In this document: one piece after another, positions 3,362-49,321 of the stretch
How the letters are laid out: every line of letters begins with the position of its first letter
Position numbering within the stretch: position 1 is the first letter of the stretch
Assembly: GCA_964563535.1 (NCBI GenBank)
Contig: CAZLXP010000001.1
Span: forward strand, 423 to 64,422
Direction: 5' to 3'
Source: an uncultured bacterium
GTDB lineage: Bacteria; RBG-13-66-14; B26-G2; WVWN01
DNA: 64,000 nucleotides
Notes under the pieces: model-generated
Databases searched by the model: none
What the model was told of the DNA's origin: nothing
The model's input: the letters and a program-made list of their open reading frames with translations, nothing else
Translations under genes and position numbers: made by a program

Positions 3362-3366
3362 AAGCT

Positions 3367-19416: not shown

Positions 19417-19531
19417 CGTCTTTCCCATATTGTTATCTTCACTTTCCCTTCCGGAGCGCCTAGGCGCTCGGGGGCTCGCCCCAACCGGATCCGAAGCGGT
19501 TTAGATCTTAGTACGTAACCCGCCGGCGCTA

Positions 19532-23485: not shown

Positions 23486-24457
23486 TTATTTAAACAACGC
23501 CTTCACCCGGCCGAGGGAGGCGGGCGCAACGGCGTACTCCGTATCCTTGAAATATTGGACGCGGTCGTTAAGCTCGTCCGCTATATAAGCCCGGGGGCCC
23601 TTTACAGTTATACCCCCAGGTTTATTGAATTCGCCGTTACCCGTCCCGGACTTCCCCCACTTCCCGAGGAAGGACCCGGTAGCCGTGAAATACTGGACGC
23701 GGTGGTTGTTCAGGTCGGTCACGAGGACCGTTCCGTTCGGCAAAAAGGCCACGTCGCAGGGGCAATCGAACTCGCCGTCGCCGGTACCCTTCGAACCCCA
23801 CTTGCCCAGGAAGCTGCCCGCCCCCGTGAAGTATTGGACGCGGTGGTTCATAGAATCGGCTACGTAGACCTTACCGTCTAGTGAGAAACCTACGCCGTCG
23901 GGGTTATAGAATTCGCCGTCGCCGGAACCCAACGAGCCCCACTTGCCGAGGAAGGTTGCTTTCGAACCGCTCACCTTGAAGTATTGAATGCGATGGTTGC
24001 CGGTATCCGCTACGTAAATGTTACCGCCGGGCGCGACAGCTATACCCCGAGGGCCGTTGAATTCACCGTCGCCCGAACCCTGCGAGCCCCACCCGCCGAC
24101 GTACGAGCCGGTCTGGGTAAAGAACTGGACGCGATGGTTGCCCCGTTCGGTTACGTAGAGGTCGCCCCTAGACCCAGGGGCAACGCCCACCGGTTCGATA
24201 AACTGGCCGCTGCCGGTCCCAGGCGTACCCCATTTGCCCCTAAAGGACCCGTTTTCGCTGAAGTATTGGACGCGATGGTTAGTGGAATCGACGACGTAAA
24301 TTAAGCCGTTGGCGCCGACGGCGACGTCGGTGGGGATTTGGAATTCGCCATTACCCGTACCGCGCTTGCCCCATTGGCCTTCGTAGACCCAAGCTCCGTA
24401 GACCGCGGCGGCCGCCAGCGCCAAAACCGCAACCGTTAAAAATGCCCTGCGTTTCAT
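23486..24457 (-). CDS. Secreted NHL-repeat beta-propeller protein (copy C, the most divergent).
   Basis: MKRRAFLTVAVLALAAAAVYGAWVYEGQWGKRGTGNGEFQ...; six NHL blades; C-terminus ...YAVAPASLGRVKALFK. Confidence 0.8.
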   Translation of the reverse strand: MKRRAFLTVAVLALAAAAVYGAWVYEGQWGKRGTGNGEFQIPTDVAVGANGLIYVVDSTNHRVQYFSENGSFRGKWGTPGTGSGQFIEPVGVAPGSRGDLYVTERGNHRVQFFTQTGSYVGGWGSQGSGDGEFNGPRGIAVAPGGNIYVADTGNHRIQYFKVSGSKATFLGKWGSLGSGDGEFYNPDGVGFSLDGKVYVADSMNHRVQYFTGAGSFLGKWGSKGTGDGEFDCPCDVAFLPNGTVLVTDLNNHRVQYFTATGSFLGKWGKSGTGNGEFNKPGGITVKGPRAYIADELNDRVQYFKDTEYAVAPASLGRVKALFK

Positions 24458-24709
24458 TTCCCTCTCCTTTGACGTTAATGGTTACCCAGTATGATTCAAC
24501 CTTGTACCGCTTCTCAGGCGCCGCCTCGAAGCCGCTCTTCACCGAGCAGTACGGCCGGTTGTAGCGCCTCAAAAAAACTTTCCCGTCCCGGCGCCTGAGC
24601 GACGCGATGGTATTATACAACACGTCGTTCATTGGGACAACTCTTGTTTCGTTGTTCTTCGAGTCGACGACGCGGAGCTGGCGGCGCGTATAATATTTAA
24701 AGTGGTCTT

Positions 24710-24889
24710 ATGAAAATAACGGTTAAGTTGGTCCCGGCGGAGGAAGGCGGGTATACGGTGTATATCCCGGCGTTGCCCGGATGCATTAGCGAGGGCGATA
24801 CGCGCGAGGAGGCGCTGGCCAACATCAAGGAGGCGTTAGCGTTATACCTCGAGCCGGGGTGGCGGAACAGGCAGACGCAGCGGACTTAA
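24710..24889 (+). CDS. hicB: HicB-like (UPF0150) type II antitoxin, 59 aa. It is absent from the ORF track because it is under 60 aa.
   Basis: Manual translation: MKITVKLVPAEEGGYTVYIPALPGCISEGDTREEALANIKEALALYLEPGWRNRQTQRT. This matches the HicB/UPF0150 signature (YxAxxPxLPGCxxxGxTxEEAxxNxxEAxxL). A TATAAT-like -10 element lies at 24688-24693. No hicA partner was identified nearby. Confidence 0.7.
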   Translation: MKITVKLVPAEEGGYTVYIPALPGCISEGDTREEALANIKEALALYLEPGWRNRQTQRT

Positions 24890-26298: not shown

Positions 26299-27155
26299 TA
26301 CTCCACCTCGGCGTTAAGACGCGAGGGTTAGCCCGGCTAACGTTTAATCGTGTATAGAATTCGGGGGAGAATACGCCCTTATTTTACTTAAATAGCCTTC
26401 GATTTTCAAGTATTTTTTTAGATGTAGAACCCCAACATCGCTACCCATTATAATAGGGTTATTCAATCGCGACACTCACCCCCGCAAACGCCGTCGCGCC
26501 TTCGATGCCGTAACCGCCCTTCATAATTTACCACATTACCAACCCTTGTGCAAGGTTTTTTGCCGTTTTTCAACCGTCAGGAAAACCTTTCGGCCCAAGG
26601 GCTTAATGCGCGTCTACGATCGCGTCGACGGCGCGCCACAGCTTTCCGAGGTCGGCGAGCGGTAACTCTGCGGCGTTGGCAAGATCACGGATCCTATACC
26701 CGAGGGCCTGTTCGCTCGAAAAGGCGAGGGTCTCGGCACGCTTTTCACGGGCGTAAAGCGTGCCGTCCGGAAAAAGGGCCCGAAGCTTAGCTCTTATGTT
26801 TTCAAGGAGCTCGTCGCGCTTCGGGCCTTCGTTATCCGCCATATTGCCACCGCCTTACTAATAACACGGTAACATGACCCGAGGCGCTAAGCTACTAAAA
26901 ATAGTACTAAGTCTTCCCCGCCATATACGTCTCGCCGGCGCGATCATGCTGTACGGACGCGTTCCAGGCGCCCCACCCGGCGTGGCCCTTGACGGTAAAG
27001 CCTTCGCCGTAGCCTCCCGCGACGCCCGGGCGCCGATGTTATAGCGTTTTTCGCGGCCCGGGTTAAGGCGCGGCGTCATTATTCTCCGGGGCGGCCATTT
27101 AAAAGTTGACACCGTTCCGCGGTTAAGTATATTATAGCGGCGAGGAGGAGGAGAT

Positions 27156-30035
27156 ATGGCGATACCCGAGATAGTCGAAACCCTTGTCGCGCGGTTCGCG
27201 AGGAACCGCGACCTCTATTGCGGGAGCGGTTACAAAGAGACCCAACTCCGCCGGGAGTTCCTCGACCCGTTCTTCGAGGCGCTGGGGTGGGACGTCGATA
27301 ACAAGCGCGGCGCGTCGCCGCTGTATCAGGACGTCGTTCACGAGTACGGCACAGACGTCGAGGGTTCTCAAAAGACCGCCGACTACGCCTTCCGCGTCGG
27401 CGAGAAAGTAAAGTTTTTCGCGGAGGCCAAAAAGCCCGGTACGCGCCTCAAAGACGACCCCACGCCGGCGCTTCAACTACGGCGCTATGCCTATTCCGCA
27501 AGTTTACCCCTTTCCATTTTAACGGACTTCGAAGAGTTCGCGGTGTACGACGGCCGCGTTCCGCCGAAGAAGGCCGACGCCGCCTCCCACGCCCGGGTCT
27601 TGTATTTTACCTACGACGAGTACCCGGAACGTTGGGAGGAGATCGCGGCCGTATTCTCGCGCGACGCCGTATGGCGCGGCGACTTCGACAAGTACGCCGA
27701 AAAAGCCGTCGGGGGAAAACACGAGCCGGTAGACAAGGCGTTCTTAAAACTCCTCGAGCGCTGGCGCGACGAGCTCGCCCGCAACGTCGCGAACCGGAAC
27801 CGCGAGAAGGAGCTGGACAAGTACGAACTGAGCGGGGCGGTACAGGCCATACTCGACCGGGTAATTTTCCTGCGGGTGGCGGAGGACCGGGGCATCGAGG
27901 GCCGCAGCCGCTTAGAGGCGCTGATGACCGGGGAGAACGTTTACGGCCGCCTGGTCGAGTTGTTCCTCGAGGCGGACGACGTTTACAACTCGGGGCTCTT
28001 TCACTTCCGCGAGGAGAAAGGGCGCGCCACCGCGCGCGACGAGCTCACGCTGACGCTGCACGTAGATGACGCCGTGTTGCGGAAAATCCTCCGGGAGCTA
28101 GCCGAAAGCCCCTACGAGTTCGGCGTCGTCCCGGTGGAAATACTCGGCCAGGTTTACGAGCAGTTCCTCGGCAAGACGATATGGCTCGACGGCCGCGGCG
28201 TCCACATCGACTACAAGGCGGAGGTCCGCAAGGCCAAGGGCGTTTATTACACGCCCCAATATATAGTGGAGTACATCGTCAAAAATACGGTGGGGGAGTT
28301 GTTGAAGGGATGCAAGACGCCGACGGAGGCCGCCAAGCTGAAAGTCCTCGACCCGGCCTGCGGCTCGGGCTCGTTCCTGCTGGGCGCGTATCAGCATCTA
28401 ATTAACTGGCACCTCGAGTGGTACGTCAACGACGGCCCGGCTAAGCACGAGGGCCGCCTCGTCGCGACCGCGGGGCCCGGGCCGGCTAGCTGGCGGCTCA
28501 CCGCCGCGGCTAAGAAAGACATACTCCTTAACAACATCTACGGCGTGGACATCGACCCGCAGGCGGTGGAGGTTACGAAGCTCTCGCTTCTCCTCAAGGC
28601 TTTGGAGGGCGAGAGCCGCGAGTCCGTCGGCGCGCAGACGAAGTTCCTGCGCGAGCGGATACTACCGGATTTGGGGGACAATATCAAGTGCGGCAACTCG
28701 CTCATAGGGTCCGACTATTTTGAGGGGGGACAGACATTAATGTCTGTCCCACCGGACGAAGAAGAACGCCGCCGCGTCAACCCGTTCGACTGGGAGGTGG
28801 AGTTCGAGGAGATAATGAAGGCGGGCGGCTTCGACGCGGTGATAGGCAACCCGCCGTGGGGTAGTACTTTTTCTGAAACCGAATTAGTTTACTTCCGGAA
28901 CGCTTTTAAAACGGCAACGGGTAAGGTAATAGATTCTTACGCGGTATTTATAGAAAAAGGGTTTTTAGTAACTAGCCATTCCGGCTTCATAAGCTACATT
29001 ACACCCGATACTTTTTTACAGAAGGACGATTATTACGTCCTTCGCGATTGGTTAACAGCAGAAGCTACAGTTTTAGATTTAATAGAAGCAGGGCCGTTAT
29101 TCCGTCAAGTACGGGATACGTGGGCCGCAGTTTGGGTTATTAAAAAAGACCGGCCTACTAAAAAACATATGATAAGTCGAAAACAAATTAGTAGGTTTAT
29201 TAAATCTGTCGAGGACCGCGGGGCGGAGTTCGAAAATGCGGATTTCGATACAATTGGGAATTTTTCGCAATATAAATGGCGAGAAGACCCAGATTTAATA
29301 TTAGGGTATTTACCTACGGGTGGGGCGCAAAATATTATTAAAAGAATGTGGCCCTATCCTAGGTTAGGCGAATTAGGTGATATGTATTCTATATCACGTG
29401 GCGAAGAAGGTAGTAAGTATCGGTTAAAAACGCATAAGAAGGGTAGCTATTTTATGGTGATACCGGAGAACGTCGAAAGATATTCCCTCGAACCCGGTAT
29501 AAGCGTAGTTAGTAATACTCTAACCCCTAATAAGATAAGTTCGGTTTATTCGAAACCCAAAATTTGGATTATTAGAATACAAAAAATGAGATGGTTGCAG
29601 AGATTGGTATGTACGTTAGATACCCGGGATAATTCGGCGGGCATGAAAACTCTACAATCGATAGTATCTAACGAGGGTGATACTAAGCGATTATTATATT
29701 TATTGGGCCTCATGAATTCGAAATTATTTAATTATTGGTGCGTTAATTATTTAAGCGATGATATGAACCAGGCGTATCTTTCAAAGTTACCGATCGCCGG
29801 ATTAGATCGTTCTAACCCCGCCGATGTCGCCCGGCACGACAAGATGGTGGCGTTGGTGGAGGAGATGCTCGCGTTGCACAAACGCGTCGCCGCCGCCAAA
29901 TCGGACGCCGACAAGCAACGCCTCCAGCGCGCCATCGACGTTACGGATAAGAAGATCGATACGTTGGTTTACGAGCTCTACGGTTTGACGGATGAGGAGG
30001 TCGAAGTAGTCGAGGGAACGCAAACGAAGGTATAA
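27156..30035 (+). CDS. Type IIG restriction-modification enzyme (fused PD-(D/E)xK endonuclease + gamma-class N6-adenine methyltransferase, Eco57I/MmeI-like).
   Basis: GGAGGAGGAG RBS. N-terminus YKETQLRREFLDPFFEALGWDVDNK with a D...EAK nuclease motif (TADYAF...FFAEAKKPG). Methyltransferase motif I LDPACGSGSFLLGA, then motif IV VIGNPPWGS. The C-terminal ~65 aa (DKMVALVEEMLALHKRVAAAKSDADKQRLQRAIDVTDKKIDTLVYELYGLTDEEVEVVEG) is the unit repeated downstream. Confidence 0.85.
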   Translation: MAIPEIVETLVARFARNRDLYCGSGYKETQLRREFLDPFFEALGWDVDNKRGASPLYQDVVHEYGTDVEGSQKTADYAFRVGEKVKFFAEAKKPGTRLKDDPTPALQLRRYAYSASLPLSILTDFEEFAVYDGRVPPKKADAASHARVLYFTYDEYPERWEEIAAVFSRDAVWRGDFDKYAEKAVGGKHEPVDKAFLKLLERWRDELARNVANRNREKELDKYELSGAVQAILDRVIFLRVAEDRGIEGRSRLEALMTGENVYGRLVELFLEADDVYNSGLFHFREEKGRATARDELTLTLHVDDAVLRKILRELAESPYEFGVVPVEILGQVYEQFLGKTIWLDGRGVHIDYKAEVRKAKGVYYTPQYIVEYIVKNTVGELLKGCKTPTEAAKLKVLDPACGSGSFLLGAYQHLINWHLEWYVNDGPAKHEGRLVATAGPGPASWRLTAAAKKDILLNNIYGVDIDPQAVEVTKLSLLLKALEGESRESVGAQTKFLRERILPDLGDNIKCGNSLIGSDYFEGGQTLMSVPPDEEERRRVNPFDWEVEFEEIMKAGGFDAVIGNPPWGSTFSETELVYFRNAFKTATGKVIDSYAVFIEKGFLVTSHSGFISYITPDTFLQKDDYYVLRDWLTAEATVLDLIEAGPLFRQVRDTWAAVWVIKKDRPTKKHMISRKQISRFIKSVEDRGAEFENADFDTIGNFSQYKWREDPDLILGYLPTGGAQNIIKRMWPYPRLGELGDMYSISRGEEGSKYRLKTHKKGSYFMVIPENVERYSLEPGISVVSNTLTPNKISSVYSKPKIWIIRIQKMRWLQRLVCTLDTRDNSAGMKTLQSIVSNEGDTKRLLYLLGLMNSKLFNYWCVNYLSDDMNQAYLSKLPIAGLDRSNPADVARHDKMVALVEEMLALHKRVAAAKSDADKQRLQRAIDVTDKKIDTLVYELYGLTDEEVEVVEGTQTKV

Positions 30036-30084
30036 AGACCGTACCGGTAAATAATAAACTGGAAATAACGAAACGAGGTATGAG

Positions 30085-30918
30085 GTGGAAAACCTACCGT
30101 TAACGTTAAAGGAATATTTTAAAACCAAGGCGGTTAAAGGCATAACTATACTAAATGACGGCGCAGGGGAAACGTTCCCTCTATCCGGTGTTATTACCTA
30201 CGGCGCTATATTATTCGCCGACCTTCCGGGTTTTTCTAAACGGTTAGCCGAATACCCGGAACCCGGATACGGTTTATTCCTAGCTAACTTATTTTTCGCT
30301 TGGTTTAAAGGGGAACACGTTTATAAATTCGGCGGGTTATTAGATAAGTACATCGGGGATGAAATTATGATGGTTTTCCCTGCCGATACTTGCGACGGAT
30401 TACCCCTAAAAGCGGCTTTGTCTGCGGCGCGACGTTTTATTGATTATGACGTTTGGGATTTTAGGCCTCGCGTAGGCGTAGCGGTTGGGGATTTCGTAAT
30501 CGGTATAGTAGGACCTTTGGAAAAGGATTATGACGATAATTTTCGCTTGACCGATATAACAGCAGTCGGGAATACCGTTAATATAGCCGCTAGGTGCGTA
30601 CAAACGTTGGGGAACAATAAAACGGTTCGAGTCGCGACTTCTGATATCGAGTTAGTCCGAACCGTTTTCCCTTCACGGCCGAGTAGCAATGGAGGACACA
30701 TAAGAAGGGACGTTTGGAATATAGATGGGCCTAAAGAGGTAGAAGCGAAAAATGTTGGTTGCATTACGGTCATAGATATCGAAAACCCTTCCATTTGGGG
30801 CCCATTGATGGGATTTTCTAACGGCAAGGCCAAGGACCGGGAAACTGAATTACACGAACAATATACCCAAGGGATTAATTACGCTTTAGATAAAGGGACC
30901 GTCGTTAACGATAAATAA
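30085..30918 (+). CDS. Stand-alone class III nucleotidyl cyclase (adenylate/guanylate-cyclase catalytic-domain family), 277 aa.
   Basis: Cyclase motifs: ILFADLPGFSK, GDEIMMVF, VGVAVGDFVIGIVGP, TAVGNTVNIAARC. It has no sensor or TM domains. It sits 50 bp after the RM gene stop. Confidence 0.7.
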   Translation: MENLPLTLKEYFKTKAVKGITILNDGAGETFPLSGVITYGAILFADLPGFSKRLAEYPEPGYGLFLANLFFAWFKGEHVYKFGGLLDKYIGDEIMMVFPADTCDGLPLKAALSAARRFIDYDVWDFRPRVGVAVGDFVIGIVGPLEKDYDDNFRLTDITAVGNTVNIAARCVQTLGNNKTVRVATSDIELVRTVFPSRPSSNGGHIRRDVWNIDGPKEVEAKNVGCITVIDIENPSIWGPLMGFSNGKAKDRETELHEQYTQGINYALDKGTVVNDK

Positions 30919-30930
30919 AATTAGAGTCCC

Positions 30931-31135
30931 CTACGCCGCCCGGCACGACAAGATCGTGGCGTTGGTGGAGGAGATGCTCGAGCTGCACAAACGCGTCGTC
31001 GCCGCCAAATCCGATACGGACAAAAAACGCCTCGAGCGCGCGATAAACGCCACCGACGGCAAAATAGACGCGCTGGTCTACGAGCTATACGGTTTGAGCG
31101 AGGAAAATATAAAGACCGTAGTAAGTAAATTATAA
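30931..31135 (+). repeat. R1: direct copy of the RM-gene 3' end (about 205 bp; encodes ...RHDKIVALVEEMLELHKRVVAAKSDTDKKRLERAINATDGKIDALVYELYGLSEENIKTVVSKL plus stop). A GC hairpin follows at 31136-31158.
   Basis: Direct nucleotide alignment to 29830-30035, about 80% identity. Same orientation as the RM gene. Confidence 0.85.
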
Positions 31136-31167
31136 GGGCGGCTTTCGCCGCCCCCCATTTTTAGACC

Positions 31168-31335
31168 TTACCCGGGTTTACATTCTTCGCACGGTTTATA
31201 CCCTTGGCCTTTTGCATACGACCTTTTTACCGTACGACGGTTAATAGGTTTTATATTATCTACCCATTTACAACCGGGTTTGTGGTACCGGCTATCCTCT
31301 TGTTTATCTGTAGAGATTATTACGTCGGGGTCCAT
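31168..31335 (-). CDS. Small Ada-type zinc-ribbon domain protein (55 aa). Not in the ORF track.
   Basis: AAGGAGGTG RBS. Manual translation MDPDVIISTDKQEDSRYHKPGCKWVDNIKPINRRTVKRSYAKGQGYKPCEECKPG matches the Ada_Zn_binding pattern YH.p.C...(n)...A...GyrPC..C.P. Confidence 0.5.
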   Translation of the reverse strand: MDPDVIISTDKQEDSRYHKPGCKWVDNIKPINRRTVKRSYAKGQGYKPCEECKPG

Positions 31336-31416
31336 AAAATCACCTCCTTTATCTTTATGGTTTTTGGTTGTCGGCGTTTCCTCTTACGGAAGCTTTTTAA
31401 AATTCCGACCGGAAAA

Positions 31417-31548
31417 TCATTTCTTTTTAGGGGTCTGGGATAAAGCGCTTCCGGCTGCCGTTTTACTTGGCTTAGAGGTCCGCCCGTCCCGTAGAACTTT
31501 CGAAGCCGCGGATGCCGCTTTCGGGCTTGTTACCTTTCCTTTCGTCAT
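31417..31548 (-). CDS. Small Lys/Ser/Ala-rich protein (43 aa). Not in the ORF track.
   Basis: AGGAGGTG RBS. MTKGKVTSPKAASAASKVLRDGRTSKPSKTAAGSALSQTPKKK. It lies upstream of, and is co-oriented with, the Ada-like mini-gene. Confidence 0.35.
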   Translation of the reverse strand: MTKGKVTSPKAASAASKVLRDGRTSKPSKTAAGSALSQTPKKK

Positions 31549-31657
31549 AATAACACCTCCTTCTTTTAGGTTTTTAATTACATTATAGTATTATAAAAAA
31601 AATCCGTCTAATACGCAATACATATTTCGGCATCCACCGAAGTCGTACCAACGAACG

Positions 31658-31857
31658 ACGTCGCCCGGTACGACAAGATGGTCGCGTTGGTGGAGGAGAT
31701 GCTCGCTCTCCACAAGCGCCTAAGTGTCGCCAACGCCGACGCGGATAAGAAAATGCTCCAACGCGCCATCGACGTTACGGATAAAAAGATCAACGCGCTG
31801 GTGTACGAATTATACGGTTTGACGGCTGAGGATATAAAAATTATGGAGTCGTCGTAG
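31658..31857 (+). repeat. R2: direct copy of the RM-gene 3' end (about 200 bp; ...VARYDKMVALVEEMLALHKRLSVANADADKKMLQRAIDVTDKKINALVYELYGLTAEDIKIMESS plus stop). A palindromic hairpin, GGTCTTAAGACC, follows at 31858-31884.
   Basis: Alignment to 29826-30035. Confidence 0.85.
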
Positions 31858-31946
31858 GGGACGGTCTTAAGACCGGCCCGCCTTGGGTTTTTAAGATATG
31901 TCGGGTTTGGTGGCACGGCCTAAAGGCCGCGCCCTACGAAAACCCC

Positions 31947-32037
31947 CGCCGCCACCGACCGCAAGATCGACGCGCTGGTCTACGAGCTATACGGCTTGAC
32001 CGATGAGGAGATAAAAATAGTAGAGGGTTCTATTTAA
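31947..32037 (+). repeat. R2b: short direct copy of the RM-gene 3' end (about 90 bp; AATDRKIDALVYELYGLTDEEIKIVEGSI plus stop).
   Basis: Alignment to 29940-30035. Its stop lies 4 nt before the ATG of the 32042 gene. Confidence 0.85.
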
Positions 32038-32041
32038 AACG

Positions 32042-32707
32042 ATGTTCTATGAATTAATACACTTTAAAATTAGCCCTATATTACTATTAACTCTGGGCTT
32101 ATCTTCCGAGTTTTTAGGCACCTTTTTAATTGCCGTGGACGCCGTCGCAATAAAAGAGTTCCTTTTAAAATTCCGATCCGATGTTTTTTATGAAAAACGC
32201 AGGGCCGATTTAGCGATTACTAAGTTTATTAATAGGTCTATTGCTTTTATTGTTTTCGGAACCGTTTTCGCCATAGTAACTACCGCGATTGGTTTAGATC
32301 TAGTACTTGCCTTGTTGCTCGCCCCATTAGGTTTTATTATACACCGTTTAATATCACGCATTCTTGGCCGGTTTTATTCACTAGTCCGTGTTCATCCGCC
32401 TAAATTGCGGGGGGGATGTATCTTAAAACCCTTATCGATTTTTATATGGCTATTATGGTTTATAGGCCTTTTGCTAACGTTTACCATATATATAGGTTTC
32501 GACATTGGTTTTGTTGTTGTGGTGTATGGGCTTAGCGAAAAATATTTAAAGCCTTTGGTGATAAAATTTTTCGATTATTTCAGCGAAAAGTGCATTAAGA
32601 AAGGCGAATCGTGGTTTCTTAAGTCATATATCATTACGGGGATTCTATTAATATTATTTGGGTTCTTATATCAAATTACGGGCACTATTCTAATTGCTTT
32701 ATATTAA
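32042..32707 (+). CDS. Polytopic membrane protein (about 5-6 TM helices), low GC, 221 aa.
   Basis: Hydrophobic helices ILLLTLGLSSEFLGTFLIAV, IAFIVFGTVFAIVTTAIGLDLVLALLLAPLGFII, IFIWLLWFIGLLLTFTIYIGFDIGFVVVVYG, IITGILLILFGFLYQITGTILIALY. No soluble domain recognised. Confidence 0.5.
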   Translation: MFYELIHFKISPILLLTLGLSSEFLGTFLIAVDAVAIKEFLLKFRSDVFYEKRRADLAITKFINRSIAFIVFGTVFAIVTTAIGLDLVLALLLAPLGFIIHRLISRILGRFYSLVRVHPPKLRGGCILKPLSIFIWLLWFIGLLLTFTIYIGFDIGFVVVVYGLSEKYLKPLVIKFFDYFSEKCIKKGESWFLKSYIITGILLILFGFLYQITGTILIALY

Positions 32708-32764
32708 TACCTGGTCCTATAGAAAATACGCGCTACGCGTGCCCCTCGGTCGTAACGCCGCGGC

Positions 32765-32855
32765 TGTCGCCGCGGCCCCCGATATCGACGCGCTGGTCTA
32801 TGAGCTGTACGGCCTGACCGATGAGGAGATAAGGATCGTGGAGGGGGCGAAGTAA
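32765..32855 (+). repeat. R3: short direct copy of the RM-gene 3' end (...DIDALVYELYGLTDEEIRIVEGAK plus stop).
   Basis: Alignment to 29950-30035. Confidence 0.8.
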
Positions 32856-32869
32856 AAGGAAACGGCTTT

Positions 32870-33364
32870 ATGTGGGATTGGTTACTAAAACACGTTCCCG
32901 AGTTAACCGCTTTGTCTACGGTTATTATGGCCGCGGCTACTACTATCGTAGCAGCCGCTACCGCGGTTTACGCGTTTTTAACTAATAAGTCATTAGCGCA
33001 GTCGAGGAAGGCCGTCACGGCTACCACCTTACCTTTACTCGCACTGCAGGAAGATACCTTTGGCGCTAATTACCCGCAATTAATATTCGTGAACCTGAAG
33101 AATAATGGATTTGGGCCGGCTTTAGAAATTCGACCTGAAATACAGGGGAATCCGGTCGGGTTTCATGTTTTAATTAAAAAACGTAGTTTGGGCCCGGGCG
33201 ATAGTTTAACGTTAGAAATAATAGGAGACCCCCATAAAGTAATCGATTATTCGGGAGTTTTGCGAGTTCGCGTATATTACCGGGCGATATTTGGCGTCGT
33301 ATACGAGTTATTGTTTGGTTTTTCCATTGATTCTCGCATCGTGGCTTTAATTCGCGTAGATTGA
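32870..33364 (+). CDS. Hypothetical protein with one N-terminal TM helix and a beta-rich C-terminal domain (164 aa).
   Basis: AAGGAAA RBS. N-terminal hydrophobic segment LTALSTVIMAAATTIVAAATAVYAFL. No motif recognised. Confidence 0.4.
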   Translation: MWDWLLKHVPELTALSTVIMAAATTIVAAATAVYAFLTNKSLAQSRKAVTATTLPLLALQEDTFGANYPQLIFVNLKNNGFGPALEIRPEIQGNPVGFHVLIKKRSLGPGDSLTLEIIGDPHKVIDYSGVLRVRVYYRAIFGVVYELLFGFSIDSRIVALIRVD

Positions 33365-33378
33365 AATAACGCAATATA

Positions 33379-33558
33379 GTGGCGTTGGTGGAGGAGATGC
33401 TCGCTCTCCACAAGCGCCTCGCCGCCGCCAAATCGGACGCCGACAAGAAAACGACCTAGCGCGCCATCGCCGCCACCGACCGTAAGATCGATGCCCTGGT
33501 CTACGAGCTGTACGGTTTGACGGATGAGGAGATAAGGATCTTGGAGGAATCTAGTTGA
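33379..33558 (+). repeat. R4: direct copy of the RM-gene 3' end (about 180 bp) carrying an internal TAG at 33457-33459 (...DADKKTT*RAIAATDRKIDALVYELYGLTDEEIRILEESS plus stop).
   Basis: Alignment to 29850-30035. The terminal TGA overlaps the ATG of the DUF3800 gene (ttgATGccg). Confidence 0.85.
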
Positions 33559-34277
33559 TGCCGTTATACCGGATTTATATCGACGAAGTCGGGAACCACG
33601 ACTTAAGGCACGCCGAGGATATTAATGAACGTTTCCTCTCTCTGACGGGGGTAATTATCGCCTCCGCTACTATAAGGAACGTCGTAGCCCCGGAGATGGT
33701 GCGATTAAAAGAGGAAGTGTTCGAGCCCGACCCTGACGAACCGGTAATATTTCACCGAAGGGACATCGTAAAAAGACGGGGTCCTTTTAAAATATTAGAC
33801 GAACCTGATAAACGCCGCGCTTTCGATGAAGCGTTGATAGCCGCTTTGACTCGGTGGGAATACAACGTCGTTACCGTAGTGATCGATAAACTAGCGCACC
33901 GCGACCAGTATAAAGTATGGATAGCGCACCCGTACCATTATTGCTTGCAGGTTTTGCTCGAAAGGTTTTTATTGTTTCTACAAGACCACGACGGCCATGG
34001 AGACGTCATGGTCGAAAGTCGGGGCGGTAAAGAGGATAAAAAACTAAAGGATTCCTTTCGAAGGCTATATAACCAAGGTACCGTTTGTATCGGGGCCGGT
34101 GATTTTCACCGTAGGTTTACTTCGGCCGAGTTGAAAGTAAAACCCAAAGCGGCTAACGTAGCGGGCCTTCAAATTTCAGATTTGGTTGCGTACCCCTCGC
34201 GCCGGGAAATCCTCCACGAACGGGTTTTTAAACGCCCGGAATTTCGACATTTAGCGACCGCGTGGTACGGATATTGA
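33555..34277 (+). CDS. DUF3800-family protein (240 aa).
   Basis: N-terminal LYRIYIDEVGNHDL matches the DUF3800 signature (YxIYIDESG...). The rest is a mixed alpha/beta soluble protein. Confidence 0.55.
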   Translation: MMPLYRIYIDEVGNHDLRHAEDINERFLSLTGVIIASATIRNVVAPEMVRLKEEVFEPDPDEPVIFHRRDIVKRRGPFKILDEPDKRRAFDEALIAALTRWEYNVVTVVIDKLAHRDQYKVWIAHPYHYCLQVLLERFLLFLQDHDGHGDVMVESRGGKEDKKLKDSFRRLYNQGTVCIGAGDFHRRFTSAELKVKPKAANVAGLQISDLVAYPSRREILHERVFKRPEFRHLATAWYGY

Positions 34278-34460
34278 TCGGCGGCAAATATTTACGTAGC
34301 CCGAGAACCGGGGATATATGGGGTTACGGAAAAAAGATGTTGCCGTAGAAAAAGGCCCCTTTCGGGGCCCCCGATGGACTTACCGCCCATCCACCTCCGC
34401 TAAACGGATTACTTATATAATACCCTATTACCACGAAATGTCAAGGGGTTTTTTAGCGTT

Positions 34461-34652
34461 CCCTGCCACGACACGATGGTGGCGTTGGTGGAGGATATGC
34501 TCGAGTTGCACAAGCGCCTCGCCGCCAAATCCGACGCCGACAAGCAGCGCCTCCAGCGCGCCATAAACGCCACCGACCGCAAGATCGACGCGCTGGTCTA
34601 CGAGCTGTACGGTTTGACAGATGAAGAGATAAGGATCGTGGAGGGTTCATAA
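34461..34652 (+). repeat. R5: direct copy of the RM-gene 3' end (about 190 bp; ...HDTMVALVEDMLELHKRLAAKSDADKQRLQRAINATDRKIDALVYELYGLTDEEIRIVEGS plus stop).
   Basis: Alignment to 29840-30035. The next gene's ATG lies 4 nt after a double TAA. Confidence 0.85.
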
Positions 34653-34655
34653 TAA

Positions 34656-35273
34656 ATGTTCGGGTTTATCTATTCTATAATTAAAGACGCGATCCGTTTA
34701 TTCCAATCGTTAGCCCCGGGTATTTCTATAACCTATAATGGTACAAGGTATTTCGCAAACCCGGGCCGTCTAATTTTTATGTTCAACGTAATGAATACCA
34801 AAAGAGATGACTTAAACCAATGCGCGCCTTGGTCATTAGTTATTAGTGATAAAAAGCCCGAACCGCTCGAAGCCGCGATGGCTAACTGGAATCTTAGGGA
34901 ATCACCTGATTATAATTATGAAGGCGGCGGCGGCCGTTATATTACTTTGAAAGGGAAATCCATACAAGAAGCGTGGTTCGAAATGTTTATTGACCCGGCG
35001 CCGTCGGTACAACATGGTGGTACGGAGCATTTTTTATTCCCGTTCGATGAAGATCCGGGGGATTACTTGCTTGCGTTGGTCATCTCATCCGGAAACAGCA
35101 AGTATTCTAAAGTAGTACGTTTTAAAATAAACGAGCGTATCGAACCTTACGACGATTTCGAATCGGTTATGTTTAAAACCGCGATTTCCGAAAATTTTAA
35201 GTCGAGCCTAAGGCAGCGCGCCCGGAATATTATTAAAAAAGTAGATTATTACGAATTAGTCAGGCCTTATTAA
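34656..35273 (+). CDS. Hypothetical soluble protein (205 aa).
   Basis: Intact ORF immediately 3' of R5. No motif recognised. Confidence 0.4.
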   Translation: MFGFIYSIIKDAIRLFQSLAPGISITYNGTRYFANPGRLIFMFNVMNTKRDDLNQCAPWSLVISDKKPEPLEAAMANWNLRESPDYNYEGGGGRYITLKGKSIQEAWFEMFIDPAPSVQHGGTEHFLFPFDEDPGDYLLALVISSGNSKYSKVVRFKINERIEPYDDFESVMFKTAISENFKSSLRQRARNIIKKVDYYELVRPY

Positions 35274-35321
35274 ACTTTTTTCAACGATAACGACTACCGG
35301 GCCGTTTTTTATCCGGTTTCC

Positions 35322-35369
35322 CGCCTGACCGACGAGGAGATAAAGATCGTGGAGGGGGCGGGGTCGTAG
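35322..35369 (+). repeat. R6: very short direct copy of the RM-gene 3' end (LTDEEIKIVEGAGS plus stop). A GGCCTTCAGGCC hairpin follows at 35370-35392.
   Basis: Alignment to the last ~45 nt of the RM gene. The stop-plus-hairpin is near-identical to that of R2 (tcgtaggggacggYctt..agRccggccc). Confidence 0.75.
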
Positions 35370-35422
35370 GGGACGGCCTTCAGGCCGGCCCAAAGTATCG
35401 TAATTATATAAAGGAGGAAAAA

Positions 35423-35824
35423 ATGCAGTTTCCCGACCGAACCGAGGCGATTATTATCCACGCGCGTTTGGCACGGGAAGCCGAAACGAAAGGCGATTTC
35501 GCCCTCGCGCGGTTATCTTATTTCAAATGGGTCGAATCGCTCCGGCAACAGAACGTTAACACCGGGGGCGCGTTAGAAAAGGATCTAGCTGCCGCTCAAA
35601 GGGCTTATTCCGCATTTGCGGGCCGAGACCCCCTTTACCTTAAAATATGTGGCGACGTCCTTTCCTATATCGCGAGTCATCCAGGCGTATTACAAACAGA
35701 CCTCTATAAAGAATTCCCCGCGTTTTCGCAGGAGGATTTACGGTATGCCCTCTATTTCGCGGGCGACCACGGTAAAATTAAACGCGAGAAGAAAGGTCGG
35801 ACGTATACCTTAACTGCGGCGTAA
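35423..35824 (+). CDS. Hypothetical protein (133 aa).
   Basis: AAAGGAGGAAAAAATG RBS. Co-oriented with the phosphatase-like gene 20 bp downstream. Confidence 0.4.
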   Translation: MQFPDRTEAIIIHARLAREAETKGDFALARLSYFKWVESLRQQNVNTGGALEKDLAAAQRAYSAFAGRDPLYLKICGDVLSYIASHPGVLQTDLYKEFPAFSQEDLRYALYFAGDHGKIKREKKGRTYTLTAA

Positions 35825-35843
35825 CCCGGATTCGGAGGTATTT

Positions 35844-36317
35844 ATGTTATCCGTTTGGGGAAACCTTTACGTTGGCGACGATGCCGATTGCTTTAGCGAC
35901 GAAAGGCCGGGATGGGCGGTAGTACACGCGTGCAAGAATCCCTGTCACGCGGCGGCCGTAGGTTATAGCGGTTCCCTATCATTCTCACATCCTAATTACT
36001 TACAATTGCGCTGCGGTTCACACCTTTATTTAAACCTTATAGACCCTCCGACGCCGCTATTTATACCCGCGTCGTTTAAATACGCGCTCGACTTTATTGA
36101 TGAATACATCGGCTCGCGTAAAGTCCTTATCCACTGCAACGAGGCGTTCTCCCGGGCGCCCTCCATCGCCCTTCTGTATTTAGCGAACCGCGCTAAAGTT
36201 ATAAGGGAAACTTCCTACGCGGCAGCGTGCGAGGATTTCCTTAGATTGTGCCCGGCTTATACCCCTGGGGAAGGCATACAAACTTTTCTTATTACGAATT
36301 GGGAATCCTTACGGTAA
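35844..36317 (+). CDS. Dual-specificity/tyrosine-phosphatase-like protein (CX5R P-loop).
   Basis: VLIHCNEAFSRAPSIALLYL fits the HCxxxxxR(S/T) phosphatase signature (C-N-E-A-F-S-R). Confidence 0.5.
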   Translation: MLSVWGNLYVGDDADCFSDERPGWAVVHACKNPCHAAAVGYSGSLSFSHPNYLQLRCGSHLYLNLIDPPTPLFIPASFKYALDFIDEYIGSRKVLIHCNEAFSRAPSIALLYLANRAKVIRETSYAAACEDFLRLCPAYTPGEGIQTFLITNWESLR

Positions 36318-36365
36318 TGCACCGCGAACGGTTCCGCCAGGGATAACGACTGCCTCGAGCGGGGC

Positions 36366-36461
36366 GTCGCCGCCGCCGCCACCGACCGCAAAATATACGC
36401 GCTGGTCTACGAGTTGTACGGCTTGACGGTTGAGGAGATTAAAACCGTGGAGGGGGTGTAG
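36366..36461 (+). repeat. R7: short direct copy of the RM-gene 3' end (AATDRKIYALVYELYGLTVEEIKTVEGV plus stop). A perfect palindrome, GGGCGAATGGCCATTCGCCC, follows.
   Basis: Alignment to 29940-30035. Confidence 0.8.
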
Positions 36462-36490
36462 GGGCGAATGGCCATTCGCCCCTAGCCGGG

Positions 36491-36525
36491 TTAACGCCTG
36501 AGGAGATAACGATAATAGAAATTAG
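36491..36525 (+). repeat. R8: remnant of the RM-gene 3' end (LTPEEITIIEIS).
   Basis: Matches the GLTDEEI..VEG segment. It is followed at 36531-36563 by a hairpin plus T8 terminator (GGCCTATTCATAGGCCAGTTTTTTTTATTT). Confidence 0.5.
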
Positions 36526-36577
36526 TCGATGCCGGCCTATTCATAGGCCAGTTTTTTTTATTTAAATTCGGCTCGAG

Positions 36578-37417
36578 CTACTTGAACAACGCCTTGACGC
36601 GGCCGAGGGAGGCGGGGGCAATGGCTGTATTGACCCATTTGAAATATTGGATGCGGTGGTTGTAGGTATCCGCGACGTAGACGCGGGAGCCGCCGGCGTT
36701 GAGACACAATCCGCACGGGCCGTTGAATTGGCCGTTACCGGAGCCGCTCGAGCCCCACTTACCCACGTAGGACCCACTCGCGGTGAAGTATTGGATGCGG
36801 TTGTTACCCGAATCGGCGACGTAGACGTTACCGTCGGGGGCGACGGCGACTCCGTACGGGTAACGGAATTGGCCGTCGCCCGTGCCGTACGAGCCCCACT
36901 GGCCGATGTAGGAACCGGCCGCGTTGAAGTATTGGATGCGGTTATTTTCGCGATCGGCGACGTATACGTTGCCGCCCGGGGCGACGGCGACGCCCCACGG
37001 GTAATAGAACTGGCCGTTGCCCGTGCCGGGCGTGCCCCGCTGGCCTACGTAGGAGCCGGTGGCGGTGAAGTATTGGACGCGTTGGTTACCCCAATCGGGG
37101 ACGTAGACGTTGCCCCTGAAGGCGACGGCGATGTCCTGTGGCCAATCGAACTGGCCGTTGCCCGTGCCGTACGAGCCCCACTGGCCGAGGTAGGACCCGG
37201 TGGCCGTAAAGTATTGGATGCGGTTGTTCCACCAATCGGCGACGTAGACGTCCCCGCACGGGGCGGCGACGACGCCCGTCGGGTATTGGAACTGGCCGTT
37301 GCCCGAGCCGCCCGAGCCCCACTGCGCTTCGTAGACCCAGGCGGCGAAGGCCGCGGCCGCCAGCGTTGCCGCCGCCGCCAGCGTTGCCGCCGCTGCGATA
37401 ATTAAAACCGTTTTCAT
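36578..37417 (-). CDS. Secreted NHL-repeat beta-propeller protein (copy D, 279 aa, 5 blades).
   Basis: MKTVLIIAAAATLAAAATLAAAAFAAWVYEAQWGSGGSGNGQ...; C-terminus ...WVNTAIAPASLGRVKALFK. Confidence 0.8.
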   Translation of the reverse strand: MKTVLIIAAAATLAAAATLAAAAFAAWVYEAQWGSGGSGNGQFQYPTGVVAAPCGDVYVADWWNNRIQYFTATGSYLGQWGSYGTGNGQFDWPQDIAVAFRGNVYVPDWGNQRVQYFTATGSYVGQRGTPGTGNGQFYYPWGVAVAPGGNVYVADRENNRIQYFNAAGSYIGQWGSYGTGDGQFRYPYGVAVAPDGNVYVADSGNNRIQYFTASGSYVGKWGSSGSGNGQFNGPCGLCLNAGGSRVYVADTYNHRIQYFKWVNTAIAPASLGRVKALFK

Positions 37418-38049: not shown

Positions 38050-39009
38050 ATGAGAAACGTTCTTTTGATGGCGCTGGCGACGGCGCTCGTTGCCGCGCCC
38101 GCCTTCGCCGACTGGGTCTACGAGGGCAAGTGGGGCTCGAGCGGCTCGGGTAACGGCCAGTTTAATCAGCCGGCCGGCGTCGACGTCGCCCCCTCGAGCG
38201 ACAACATCTACGTAGCCGACCAGTATAACCACCGCATCCAATACTTCACCGCGAGTGGGTCCTACCTGGGCCAGTGGGGCTCGAGCGGCTCGGGTAACGG
38301 CCAGTTCAATCGCCCGTACGACGTAACCGTCGCCCCTGGCGGCGACGTCTACGTCGCTGACTTCTACAACCACCGCATCCAATACTTCACCTCGACCGGC
38401 TCCTACCTCGGCAAGTGGGGCTCGAACGGCTCGGGTAACGGCCTGTTCAATTACCCGATGGGCGTCACCGTCGCCCCCGCGAGCGGTAACGTCTACGTTA
38501 ATGATAGCGGCAACGGCCGCGTACAATATTTCACCGCCATCGGCTCCTACCTCGGCCAGTGGGGTAGTTCCTTATTAACGGAATGTGGCATCGCCGTCGT
38601 CCCCGCTAACGGTAACGTCTATATCGCGGATTTCAGGAACGACCGCATCCGGTACTTTACCTATAGCGGCTCCGTCCTCGGCTCGTGGGGCTCTACCGGC
38701 TCCGGGAACGGCCAGTTCGGCGGCCCGGATGACGTCGACGTCGCCCCCGGGAGCGGCGACGCATACGTCAGCGATTGGGGTAACGCCCGCATCCAATACT
38801 TCACCTCGACCGGCTCCTACCTCGGCAAGTGGGGCTCGTTCGGCTCGGGCAACGGCCAGTTCAACCGCCCATGCGGAGTATGTTTCAACGTCGGCGGCTC
38901 GCGCTTCTACGTCACCGATTTCTACAACCACCGCATCCAATATTTCAAGTGGGAAAATACGGCCATTACCCCTGCCTCTCTCGGCCGCGTGAAAGCGATT
39001 TTTAAGTAA
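38050..39009 (+). CDS. Secreted NHL-repeat beta-propeller protein (copy E; closest paralogue of copy A).
   Basis: MRNVLLMALATALVAAPAFADWVYEGKWGS...; six blades; C-terminus ...WENTAITPASLGRVKAIFK. Confidence 0.8.
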   Translation: MRNVLLMALATALVAAPAFADWVYEGKWGSSGSGNGQFNQPAGVDVAPSSDNIYVADQYNHRIQYFTASGSYLGQWGSSGSGNGQFNRPYDVTVAPGGDVYVADFYNHRIQYFTSTGSYLGKWGSNGSGNGLFNYPMGVTVAPASGNVYVNDSGNGRVQYFTAIGSYLGQWGSSLLTECGIAVVPANGNVYIADFRNDRIRYFTYSGSVLGSWGSTGSGNGQFGGPDDVDVAPGSGDAYVSDWGNARIQYFTSTGSYLGKWGSFGSGNGQFNRPCGVCFNVGGSRFYVTDFYNHRIQYFKWENTAITPASLGRVKAIFK

Positions 39010-43467: not shown

Positions 43468-43482
43468 CGAGAACGCCTTCCT

Positions 43483-44415: not shown

Positions 44416-44713
44416 CTTTACCCCTCCTAGGAGACGCGGCACGGGCCGCCGCAGACTCGGCAACGCGTATCGCGTTGTACGCGAACGGAAAAGCCCCGCA
44501 AAACGCTTCCCGGTCACCGTCTGTTGCGTATCGCCCAAGTGCGGTTTGTAGCCGTCTTAAATAGCGCAAGTTACTACGCCAAACCTTGAGGCATACGTTC
44601 GCATCGTCGATAGTAACGCAACCGGCCACAACCGCGAACTCGTTCGGCGACCCTATACCGATAGGATCGAAACTCATACGGAGCCAAGAGAGGCCGTCGA
44701 AAATATCCGCACC

Positions 44714-49273: not shown

Positions 49274-49321
49274 CTAGTAAGGGGTTTACCGGTATTTGTT
49301 CTTGGGCCTATTAAGCCGTTC

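Follow-up and report, generated by a model that had tools for sequence, protein, structure and literature searches.

An array of restriction-modification gene ends

The window analysed here is a 64,000-nt stretch of DNA from an uncultured bacterium (positions 423 to 64,422 of contig CAZLXP010000001.1, GenBank assembly GCA_964563535.1), and our subject within it is a type IIG restriction-modification (RM) gene that is followed downstream by nine further copies of its own 3' end. Repeat search, local alignment, and an in-frame motif scan recovered ten direct copies of this segment, which we call R—the native end R1 and nine orphans, R2 to R10—with seven cargo open reading frames (ORFs) lying between them. 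All ten copies are on the + strand, and each terminates at a stop that is in frame with the RM gene; their 3' end is common and their 5' extents are nested, the orphans spanning 38-202 nt. An earlier, sequence-only reading of the window had described cargo genes each with a copy of the RM 3' end, in direct orientation, with nested 5' extents, a common 3' end, and marks of decay. All of this is borne out, decay being visible as a TAG in R6, an in-frame deletion in R7, and the stubs R8 and R10, and the count of at least eight copies rises to ten. The anchor gene and its repeats are laid out as follows.

27106..27135, + strand: sigma-70-like promoter match (TTGACA, 16-18 nt spacer, TATATT/TATTAT) directly 5' of the RM gene; a consensus match only (11/12 consensus matches)
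27156..30035, + strand: type IIG RM gene, anchor of the array, 959 aa, intact (Pfam domains and full-length homologues)
27156..28855, + strand: conserved left arm, nuclease and N-terminal methyltransferase up to NPPW, GC 0.62 (homology to all relatives ends at ~28855-28860)
28856..29821, + strand: variable region, or target-recognition (specificity) domain, GC 0.39 (unlike close relatives)
29822..30035, + strand: R1, native conserved 3' end (..ARHDKMVALVEEML..LVYELYGLTDEEV..), stop codon at 30033-30035 (repeat search, alignment, motif scan)
30937..31135, + strand: R2, long orphan copy, then a terminator-like hairpin (alignment)
31656..31857, + strand: R3, long orphan copy, matched at 90% identity by the functional end of the RM gene in the sister strain L215 (alignment)
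31947..32037, + strand: R4, short orphan copy (motif scan)
32784..32855, + strand: R5, short orphan copy (alignment, motif scan)
33369..33558, + strand: R6, long orphan copy interrupted in frame by a TAG (33457-33459); the following cargo start overlaps its stop (alignment)
34467..34652, + strand: R7, long orphan copy lacking 3 nt in frame; its VEG codons contain a GGAGGG that lies 9 nt upstream of the following ATG (alignment)
35310..35369, + strand: R8, degenerate stub (..RLTDEEIKIVEGAGS, then the stop codon at 35367-35369); stub and hairpin together occupy 35310..35392 (repeat search)
36368..36461, + strand: R9, short orphan copy, then the palindrome TAGGGGCGAATGGCCATTCGCCCCTA (~36459-36484) (alignment)
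36482..36519, + strand: R10, 38-nt stub (LAGLTPEEITIIE) (repeat search)

The 959-aa RM protein matches the Pfam families HSDR_N (1.3e-7), N6_Mtase (3.4e-16), Eco57I (1.1e-33), MmeI_Mtase (6e-12), and, weakly, TaqI_C (1.1e-3), and aligns over its full length with hundreds of homologues of 950-1000 aa. With an N-terminal nuclease, a gamma-class N6-adenine methyltransferase carrying NPPY/W (here NPPW, at ~28846-28857), and a C-terminal specificity domain in a single polypeptide, it is predicted to be a type IIG enzyme. An exact database record for the protein was not found; a 100% identical cluster member exists. Close relatives are 73-98% identical to it, with this identity confined to the N-terminal 55-71%, and at the nucleotide level homology to every relative ends at ~28855-28860 and restarts at ~29810; the RM gene therefore consists of two nucleotide-conserved arms flanking a replaceable middle. 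GC content alternates along the locus, from 0.62 in the N-terminal half of the RM gene to 0.39 in the part past NPPW, 0.52-0.60 in the repeats, and 0.35-0.52 in the cargo.

Orphans are 80-87% identical to R1 in local alignments and 65-79% identical over fixed extents. BLASTN comparisons of R copies with related gene ends reach E-values down to 1e-40 to 1e-57, and the R peptide motif has no match in 930 kb of shuffled sequence, which together exclude chance similarity of the copies. Long-class copies have 5' edges that scatter over ~30 nt, starting 12-40 nt before the ATGGTGGCG anchor, and this spread led us to reject the idea that the long repeats share one exact 5' boundary.

Orphan copies resemble functional gene ends of other genomes

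The repeats had initially been taken for copies of the native end, a view that the comparison with other RM genes contradicts for most of them: R4-R9 are 85-89% identical to functional ends elsewhere and 65-79% identical to the resident R1. Differences between orphans fall on codon positions 1, 2, and 3 in the ratio 23:18:60, which is indistinguishable from the ratios for native against native ends (31:15:54) and native ends against orphans (29:15:56), with the caveat that part of the third-position excess could stem from mutation bias driven by GC content at third codon positions. From this third-position bias, the closer similarity to foreign ends, and the match of R3 to the gene end of L215, it follows that the orphans are not neutrally decaying local duplicates. 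More probably, to judge from their sequences, they recently were functional gene ends or exchanged sequence with such ends. No adenine-specific mismatches were seen between native and orphan copies, A standing in the native copy at 19% and in the orphan copy at 29% of mismatches. A diversity-generating retroelement was rejected on this ground and because no reverse transcriptase is present among the annotated ORFs.

Cassettes are exchanged as blocks and turn over at repeats

A sister strain, represented by contigs L004 and L215/L216 of one sample (Joint Genome Institute, JGI 3300012964), is 94-98% identical to the window in common blocks, and its layout agrees with that of the window up to GGCAACCCGCC (the NPP motif, window 28855). 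Past this motif, L215 encodes an unrelated specificity domain whose own gene end is the 90% match to window orphan R3, followed by proximal cassettes that the window does not have (a DUF4145 gene, a 382-aa DUF3800 gene, and a 195-aa ORF). Further downstream, L215 4264-5206 corresponds to window 30937-31879 (R2 to the R3 hairpin) at 90.8% identity, and L215 5155-6189 corresponds to window 35334-36374 (R8 tail, hairpin, and the 133-aa and 157-aa genes) at 98%. Five window units, from R4 to the 205-aa cargo, are not in L215, and the junction lies in a 52-nt overlap of the R3-type and R8-type tails with their hairpin. Only the first ~20 nt of R9 are kept in L215, which places a third breakpoint within R9. 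Every breakpoint between the window and the sister strain thus lies at the NPP[WY] motif or inside repeats, and the stretch made up of the specificity domain and the proximal cassettes was exchanged as a single block between the N-terminal arm and a repeat.

Loci with a second repeat family (..EHERTLLARRIEATDRQIDRLVYELYGL..) carry the same cassettes in different combinations and orders.

L199+L170: RM-P2-R-P9'-R-S14
L120: RM-P2-R*-S14
L094+L109: RM-T3-R-P9-R-P2-R-VapBC(-)
L114: R-T3'-R-VapBC(-)
L179: RM-VapBC(-)-R

L120 carries a hybrid repeat, R*, which resembles the repeat that follows P2 in its 5' part and the terminal repeat in its 3' part, and L120 differs from L199/L170 by a one-cassette indel with R* at its junction. 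L121, with the same flanks (98.5% identity), is without everything from RM nt 34 to the last ~27 nt of the terminal repeat.

Two junctions that involve the RM gene itself were noted alongside. They show that the RM gene can be lost while repeats and cargo remain. In L121 (~9187-9210), the terminal repeat has kept its last ~27 nt, which follow straight on from the first 34 nt of the RM gene; in L176 (3618-4031), ~90 N-terminal RM residues are fused in frame to R.

The same architecture in other genomes and metagenomes

The comparative data are metagenome-assembled genomes (MAGs) and metagenome assemblies. RM proteins P0002-P0008 are 73-81% identical to that of the window over the N-terminal 65-71% only; their loci are syntenic with one another and unlike the window site, lying between a ctpB-like peptidase gene and surA-like genes. 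All close RM relatives for which downstream sequence is available carry arrays, with different cargo: L001/L002 have a 125-aa cargo gene and R, L003 has a 300-aa cargo gene and R, L085-87 have the native end and four orphans in three independent assemblies, and L088 and L090 are also arrays. Three contigs of close relatives stop at most 160 nt past the RM stop or at an orphan, as expected for repeats. The terminal orphans of L001 and L003 have a common downstream flank and differ in cargo and 5' extents. Of two comparisons proposed together with the first description of the array, that of the same RM gene with different cargo is supplied by L215/L004, L001, L003, L085, and L088; that of empty with occupied sites gave no true empty site, and yielded the RM-and-array deletion variant L121, which belongs to an unrelated repeat family.

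For an unbiased set, we gathered 80 RM loci, 40-56% identical, from species-representative genomes, 54 of them with at least 1.5 kb of downstream sequence. Orphans 76-96% identical to the locus's own gene end are present at 6 of these 54, and a seventh such locus has a shorter flank. The hosts are diverse (Phycisphaerae, Thermotogae, Vicinamibacteraceae, Brocadiaceae, a Hydrogenedentes bacterium, and two methanogens), and R sequences are lineage-specific across these bacterial phyla and methanogens. An archaeal (Methanomicrobia) locus, L038, has four RM-end copies, with Gabija between two of them. Between RM-end copies at 15948-19483, L038 encodes both members of a Gabija pair (GajA-like, 579 aa; GajB-like, 595 aa) and also has TIR-like and HicA/HicB-like genes. 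On the Brocadiaceae contig L070, an RM end, a 148-aa cargo gene, and an orphan occur twice (2541-3475 and 13061-13995), 10.5 kb apart; the two gene ends are 100% identical over the aligned 230 nt, which indicates a large recent duplication or an assembly artefact.

Metagenome matches were found with the repeat core using a GC-rich codon pattern. Among the matches listed (80 metagenome contigs), 22 carry at least two copies and 20 a single orphan, so that 42 have orphans, and the motif stands at the end of a long ORF in only 28. When multi-copy loci are pooled, copies are co-oriented in 46/46, and the full gene is 5'-most in all 17 loci where it is present. A typical unit measures 550-1100 nt and contains one ORF of 120-380 aa, which often starts at -7 to +66 nt relative to the stop of the repeat; in some pairs, one repeat follows the other with no intervening cargo. 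The repeat core had only 3 matches in 2.9 million viral contigs, and virus-borne cassettes were rejected on this ground; annotated plasmids gave 4 weak matches to the R peptide.

Cargo genes and their spacing

The ORFs between the repeats of the window are the following.

30085..30918, + strand: cargo 1, 277 aa, weakly cyclase-like (Pycsar PycC-like; Pfam Guanylate_cyc 3.7e-4, PADLOC PycC 1.8e-7)
31168..31335, - strand: 55-aa Cys-rich ORF, Ada-Zn-like by eye, no Pfam match (ORF list, Pfam)
31417-31548, - strand: 43-aa ORF, which with the 55-aa ORF fills the R2-R3 interval; the interval is conserved in L215 (ORF list, alignment)
32042..32707, + strand: 221-aa cargo, multi-pass transmembrane by eye only, no family match, GC 0.35 (Pfam, PADLOC, NCBIfam)
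32870..33364, + strand: 164-aa cargo, N-terminal hydrophobic stretch by eye only, no family match (ORF list, Pfam)
33555..34277, + strand: 240-aa DUF3800 cargo (Pfam 7.5e-13)
34656..35273, + strand: 205-aa cargo, no family assigned (ORF list, Pfam)
35423..36317, + strand: two-gene cargo, 98% identical in L215 (Pfam, alignment)
35423-35824, + strand: 133-aa ORF, first gene of the two-gene cargo (ORF list)
35844-36317, + strand: 157-aa dual-specificity-phosphatase-like ORF (DSPc-like, 4.8e-4), second gene of the two-gene cargo (Pfam)

The annotations first proposed for these genes are weak overall: DUF3800 stands at 7.5e-13, the cyclase at 3.7e-4, and the DSPc-like assignment at 4.8e-4, and Ada-Zn falls away with no Pfam match; an NCBIfam search returned no match for any cargo. 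Two of the genes recur in distant arrays. A 45%-identical homologue of the DUF3800 cargo stands right after an orphan copy in the Thermotogae locus L053, and the phosphatase-like gene reappears at 37% identity, with an orphan copy after it, in the Phycisphaerae locus L032, where the preceding 143-aa gene shows no BLASTP similarity to the window 133-aa ORF. At 53-56% identity, phosphatase-like homologues are also present in defence islands elsewhere that have no R, and cargo is therefore drawn from a general pool.

Across the arrays examined, 54 distinct cargo ORFs are 100 aa or longer, and 41 of them are BLASTP singletons. Families assigned by Pfam or PADLOC comprise ThsB-type TIR (2), PIN (3), HEPN_LA2681 / PDC-S11, GajA and GajB, DUF4268, SIR2_2, NYN, DUF3800, DSPc-like (2), a Zn-dehydrogenase, and a receiver-domain protein; other cargo ORFs have no family match, several being membrane-associated by eye, and some cargo genes are of toxin-antitoxin type (PIN, RelE-like, VapBC). 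By these assignments, array cargo would be mostly small defence-type genes, with presumed defence activity. The PycC-like cyclase (30085-30918) and the 221-aa protein (32042-32707) stand two repeats apart and, speculatively, resemble the split halves of a Pycsar system.

Cargo starts had been placed 0-15 nt after the repeat stop, which holds for R4, R5, R6, and R7, and not for R1 and R8, where the distance is 50-57 nt, or for R2, after which the small ORFs run on the opposite strand. In R6 and R7, the conserved VEG codons contain GGAGG 9-10 nt before the next start codon. Translational coupling, an earlier suggestion, is plausible for four window cassettes and is not general, another repeat family having 242-nt spacers. 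The terminator-like hairpin after R2 and the opposite-strand ORFs between R2 and R3 mean that the array is not one simple operon.

Hairpins, spacers, and the search for a recombinase

Fold and hairpin scans identified the following structures within the array.

31136-31153, + strand: terminator-like hairpin with T-run after R2 (fold and hairpin scan)
31857..31946, + strand: R3-R4 spacer with two short GC-rich hairpins (31857-31880; ~31912-31933) (fold scan)
35369-35391, + strand: hairpin after R8 (fold scan)
36534..36557, + strand: terminator-like hairpin with T8 at the distal array end (fold scan)

A hairpin had been reported after almost every repeat; in the window, hairpins occur only after R2, R3, R8, R9, and R10/array end, that is, at 5 of 10 junctions. 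They are perfect or near-perfect stems of 7-11 bp, two of them with T-runs, with fold z-scores of -1.1 to -3.7, and the motif common to the R3 and R8 hairpins is found at two places only within the window. Across loci, hairpins follow 15 of 115 native ends (13%) and 23 of 125 orphans (18%), and their sequences vary, while the composite of R3, spacer, and R4 is conserved at 81-89% in L112, L140, L176, L205, and L206. The hairpins look like terminators of particular RM alleles, carried along with R. Short stems, a motif found at two places, and minority status across loci rule out attC-like or REP-like hairpins, and the attC-like folding that had been proposed as a check gave short perfect stems, two with T-runs. 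No Rfam family reached the gathering threshold in the window, on which a structured RNA was rejected, and the window has no transfer RNA (tRNA) or transfer-messenger RNA (tmRNA) gene, hence no such target. As a separate observation, tandem units without cargo, each made up of a short repeat, a stop, and a GGGGCGAnnGGCCnnTCGCCCC hairpin, recur with periods of 132-346 nt (L089/L090 13000-13140; L130; window 36459-36519), the hairpin exactly filling the gap from one stop codon to the short repeat that follows.

The island that contains the array extends from ~24.5 to 36.6 kb, between NHL-repeat paralogues, and the one trace of a recombinase lies at its margin.

24351..24700, - strand: tyrosine recombinase gene remnant at the left island edge (homology)

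L004 holds a longer, still truncated, 196-aa version of this gene (L004 3259-3849). An ORF scan of 24-40 kb and Pfam scans of the array and flanks showed no intact recombinase among the ORFs annotated in and around the island, nor was one seen in the other arrays examined or beside related ones.

A recombination-based reading of the array and its rivals

On balance we lean towards reading the locus as a recombinase-free cassette array, in which homologous recombination would use the conserved RM 3' end as portable homology. This leaning rests on the recurrence and polarity of the arrays, breakpoints in R or at NPP[WY], the third-position signature, the lack of a recombinase, and the alternation in GC content. 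General homologous recombination between the N-terminal arm (to NPP[WY]) and the last ~200 nt (R) would swap specificity domains between strains, and a gene between the RM stop and a second R copy would travel along with the exchange. Recombination between any two R copies could in turn add, delete, replace, or reorder cassettes, by routes that may run within a chromosome, between incoming DNA and the chromosome through flanking homology, or through a circle bearing a single R with a single cargo gene. Since one R has to stay with the intact gene, arrays would grow polarly downstream, with older R copies drifting, shortening, and ending as inert stubs; GGAGG in the conserved VEG codons may act as a ribosome-binding site (RBS) for closely spaced cargo. 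We infer RecA-type recombination as the agent, and likewise the existence of circular intermediates, the way in which the first R duplication arises, and the co-transcription of cargo from the RM promoter. Efficient RecA recombination in Escherichia coli requires a minimum of ~20-30 nt. Exact-match stretches between window R pairs reach 20-39 nt and, for any pair that includes a distal stub (R8-R10), only 7-18 nt, which fits an exchangeable proximal part and a frozen distal part of the array.

Several points weigh against this reading. Homologous recombination alone does not explain the first R duplication at a locus, and the R copies of the window are only 65-90% identical, so that recombination among them should be inefficient. 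Long-class orphans begin in that narrow zone 12-40 nt before ATGGTGGCG, cargo stops abut the zone, and no remnants of specificity domains were seen; simple recombination does not predict edges this tidy, which might reflect a directed process or selection for repeat length. The short-class R, for its part, often begins directly after a conserved hairpin. Finally, repeats may break or collapse MAG and metagenome assemblies, and several contigs end right after R.

Under serial displacement in the manner of Rhs orphans, each incoming RM allele, with its specificity domain, its own 3' end, and its downstream gene, would recombine homologously in the N-terminal arm and join illegitimately near the start of the resident 3' end, pushing the old 5'-truncated end and its old cargo downstream, so that orphans would be relics and any later exchange incidental. 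Nested 5' extents with a common 3' end would result, the most distal copies would be the most degraded, as they are, and cargo starts would abut the preceding R stop as in native operons of RM plus downstream gene. The terminal orphans of L001 and L003, with the same downstream flank and different cargo and 5' extents, the fact that the window and L215 differ jointly in specificity domain and proximal cassettes, and a codon-position signature suited to former functional ends all accord with such a history. Illegitimate joins should, however, scatter over the 950-nt specificity domain and leave remnants, and none were seen, while an internal cassette indel with a hybrid R, a five-unit indel, and reordered cassettes need R-by-R exchange. 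Displacement explains the proximal events and not the internal indels, and we think it unlikely as the main process. Long target duplication, in which each cargo insertion duplicated the resident 3' end and the copy then decayed neutrally, draws on a documented precedent—PMC2853133 describes such rearrangement near RM genes, with direct repeats of >30 bp and no mobility genes—and R copies are indeed direct repeats of the target. Orphans nearer to the ends of other genomes than to the resident end, differences biased towards third positions rather than neutral (1:1:1), and a window orphan that is the functional end in the sister strain leave this account very improbable.

A further account, close to the serial site-specific integration first proposed for this locus, has cassettes integrated by a recombinase whose gene lies elsewhere (integron-like, Xer-like, or an integrase in trans), with R or the hairpin as attachment site. 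Strict polarity and co-orientation, the tidy 5' edge of long-class R, the conserved hairpin that exactly fills the space from some R stops to the short R that follows, and the decayed tyrosine recombinase gene at the island edge would all be at home in it. Most ends have no hairpin, though (hairpins, of varying sequence, follow 13% of native ends and 18% of orphans), R edges vary by ~30 nt, breakpoints fall in different parts of R, and the repeats, 40-200 nt long and 65-90% identical, do not resemble att cores. Site recognition would moreover have to go through protein-coding constraint, R being lineage-specific across phyla and methanogens, and no recombinase gene is in or beside the arrays examined. 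We accordingly consider a recombinase in trans improbable, and the original proposal of serial integration is not supported, in view of the few hairpins, scattered R edges, varied breakpoints, block exchange, and copies that are not resident duplicates; the description that accompanied it, of an integrase-less polar array of single-gene-sized cassettes on the RM 3' end, agrees with our data. No recombinase was seen, and cassettes are gained and lost individually. The idea that cargo genes are dedicated RM accessory subunits, with the repeats as regulatory or coupling elements of one operon, has on its side the tight stop-start spacing, the Shine-Dalgarno-like GGAGG in R, and the recurrence of DUF3800 and phosphatase-like genes after R in distant phyla. 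It is the least credible of the accounts considered, given that 41/54 cargo ORFs are singletons, that Gabija, ThsB-TIR, PIN, HEPN, SIR2, and Zn-dehydrogenase are among the cargo, that phosphatase-like homologues occur in R-free islands, and that a terminator and opposite-strand ORFs interrupt the array.

Relation to known systems

Orphan arrays of Rhs and contact-dependent inhibition (CDI) loci (MafB, type VI secretion system effectors) have no dedicated recombinase; homologous recombination with displacement is their accepted mechanism, and the array serves as a reservoir. The RM arrays share their layout, with the full gene first and co-oriented, 5'-truncated conserved segments with variable modules after it. 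In Rhs/CDI loci, however, the conserved segment is an internal core before an in-frame toxin domain, whereas here it is the extreme 3' coding end, with separate genes past the stop, the anchor is an RM gene, and the cargo consists of defence genes rather than toxin tips. Membership in the Rhs/CDI class was rejected, as cargo ORFs start after the R stop, belong for the most part to unrelated families or to none, and do not form an in-frame toxin domain plus immunity gene; the likeness is one of architecture only.

Integrons, including the sedentary chromosomal ones in which defence cassettes are stored, likewise have polar, co-oriented, mostly single-gene cassettes, a platform gene or promoter, repeats between cassettes, and defence enrichment. 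Here, by contrast, no IntI was found, there is no attC, and the repeats are coding copies of the anchor gene. We rejected an integron because no IntI adjoins the array (ORF scan of 24-40 kb, Pfam; only the decayed fragment at 24351-24700) and because no attC (an imperfect palindrome of 57-141 nt with extrahelical bases) stands at each cassette, hairpins with short stems being present at 5/10 junctions. The comparison of the array with an integron-like or Rhs-orphan-like reservoir in the sequence-only reading therefore keeps its Rhs-orphan architecture and its integron resemblance in function, and loses membership in either class. Accretion at the 3' ends of tRNA, tmRNA, or protein genes (tycheposon arrays; cis-mobilizable and integrative mobilizable elements, CIME/IME) also gives polar units bounded by copies of the target 3' end, with the intact gene at one side. 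Those systems have an integrase, a fixed att core, and usually multi-kilobase units, unlike the variable extents and breakpoints and the 0.6-1.8 kb units seen here. Integrase-mediated accretion was rejected on units without an integrase, extents of 38-202 nt, edges at -12 to -40 nt, and differing breakpoints, and an hsdS-like phase-variable shufflon on repeats that are all direct, no cargo matching the specificity-domain family, and no invertase.

Variable defence hotspots exchanged by way of conserved flanking genes (P2/P4 hotspots, core defence hotspots) and the pdif modules of Acinetobacter plasmids show cassette-like turnover without a cassette-borne recombinase. Hotspots are delimited by two different flanking genes rather than by reiterated copies of one gene end, and pdif modules have 28-bp Xer sites in alternating orientation. 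Furuta, Abe, and Kobayashi (2010; PMC2853133) describe RM-linked insertion with long target duplication and no mobility genes, and document exchange of type IIG specificity domains between conserved flanks. The present arrays resemble these cases in being RM-linked, with long direct target repeats, specificity-domain exchange, and no mobility genes; there, however, an RM system was the inserted element and the events described were single, whereas here the RM gene is the anchor, the inserts are non-RM genes, and the process is serial and does not leave in-place duplicates. By analogy, the nearest relatives in architecture would be Rhs/CDI orphan arrays and tandem islands at gene 3' ends, in function the integron, and as a class of rearrangement the events of Furuta et al. 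(2010). We would provisionally class the array as homology-driven orphan-array or island accretion. A description of reiterated RM 3' ends flanking cargo was not found in the full-text literature searched, in line with the first impression that no such system had been described; coverage of subscription journals is incomplete and an earlier description is possible.

These arrays suggest how, in a simple and general way, small defence genes can be stacked and traded across species with no mobility function of their own, riding on the homology arms of an RM gene that is itself in constant exchange, and so bear on the long-standing question of how defence islands form. They link diversification of RM specificity with the gain of other defences in one recombination event. 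Co-oriented orphan ends of the type ..LVYELYGLTxEEI.. offer a cheap sequence signature for finding further arrays, and contents enriched in known defence modules (Gabija, ThsB-TIR, PIN, HEPN, SIR2, a Pycsar-like cyclase, DUF3800) alongside many unknowns lend themselves to discovery through guilt by embedding. A wider generalization, which we offer tentatively and hold to be somewhat short of probable, is that the 3' end of Eco57I-family type IIG genes may be a widespread recombinase-free gene-capture platform of bacteria and archaea, its ~200-nt coding segment serving as attachment or homology, RBS donor, and expression context for promoter-less cassettes, in other words a homology-based analogue of the integron. 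Were it true, the genes between repeat copies would form a large and easily mined catalogue of new defence genes.

Island setting and neighbouring genes

Paralogous NHL-repeat genes flank the island at 20.7-24.5 kb, 36578-37417 (- strand), and 38050-39009 (+ strand), with an internal period of 141 nt. They are 65-83% identical to one another and form long direct and inverted repeats around the island, and could mediate rearrangement of the island as a whole. At the left edge, a HicB-like antitoxin ORF (24710-24889) adjoins the decaying tyrosine recombinase (region 24351-24889), and the window segment 24687-27016 is replaced by unrelated sequence in L004.

A second defence cluster occupies window 41926-50745 on the - strand. 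It begins with a Cap17-like ATP nucleosidase (41926-43467) and a SMODS cyclase (43483-44538), a CBASS-like pair, and continues with a QueC-like PP-loop protein (45396-45998), a 928-aa ResIII helicase whose C-terminus is weakly TnsA-like endonuclease (46487-49273), and a Schlafen AlbA_2 / HATPase_c_4 protein (49351-50745). Farther along the window, a 2146-aa ORF runs on the - strand at 55654-62094.

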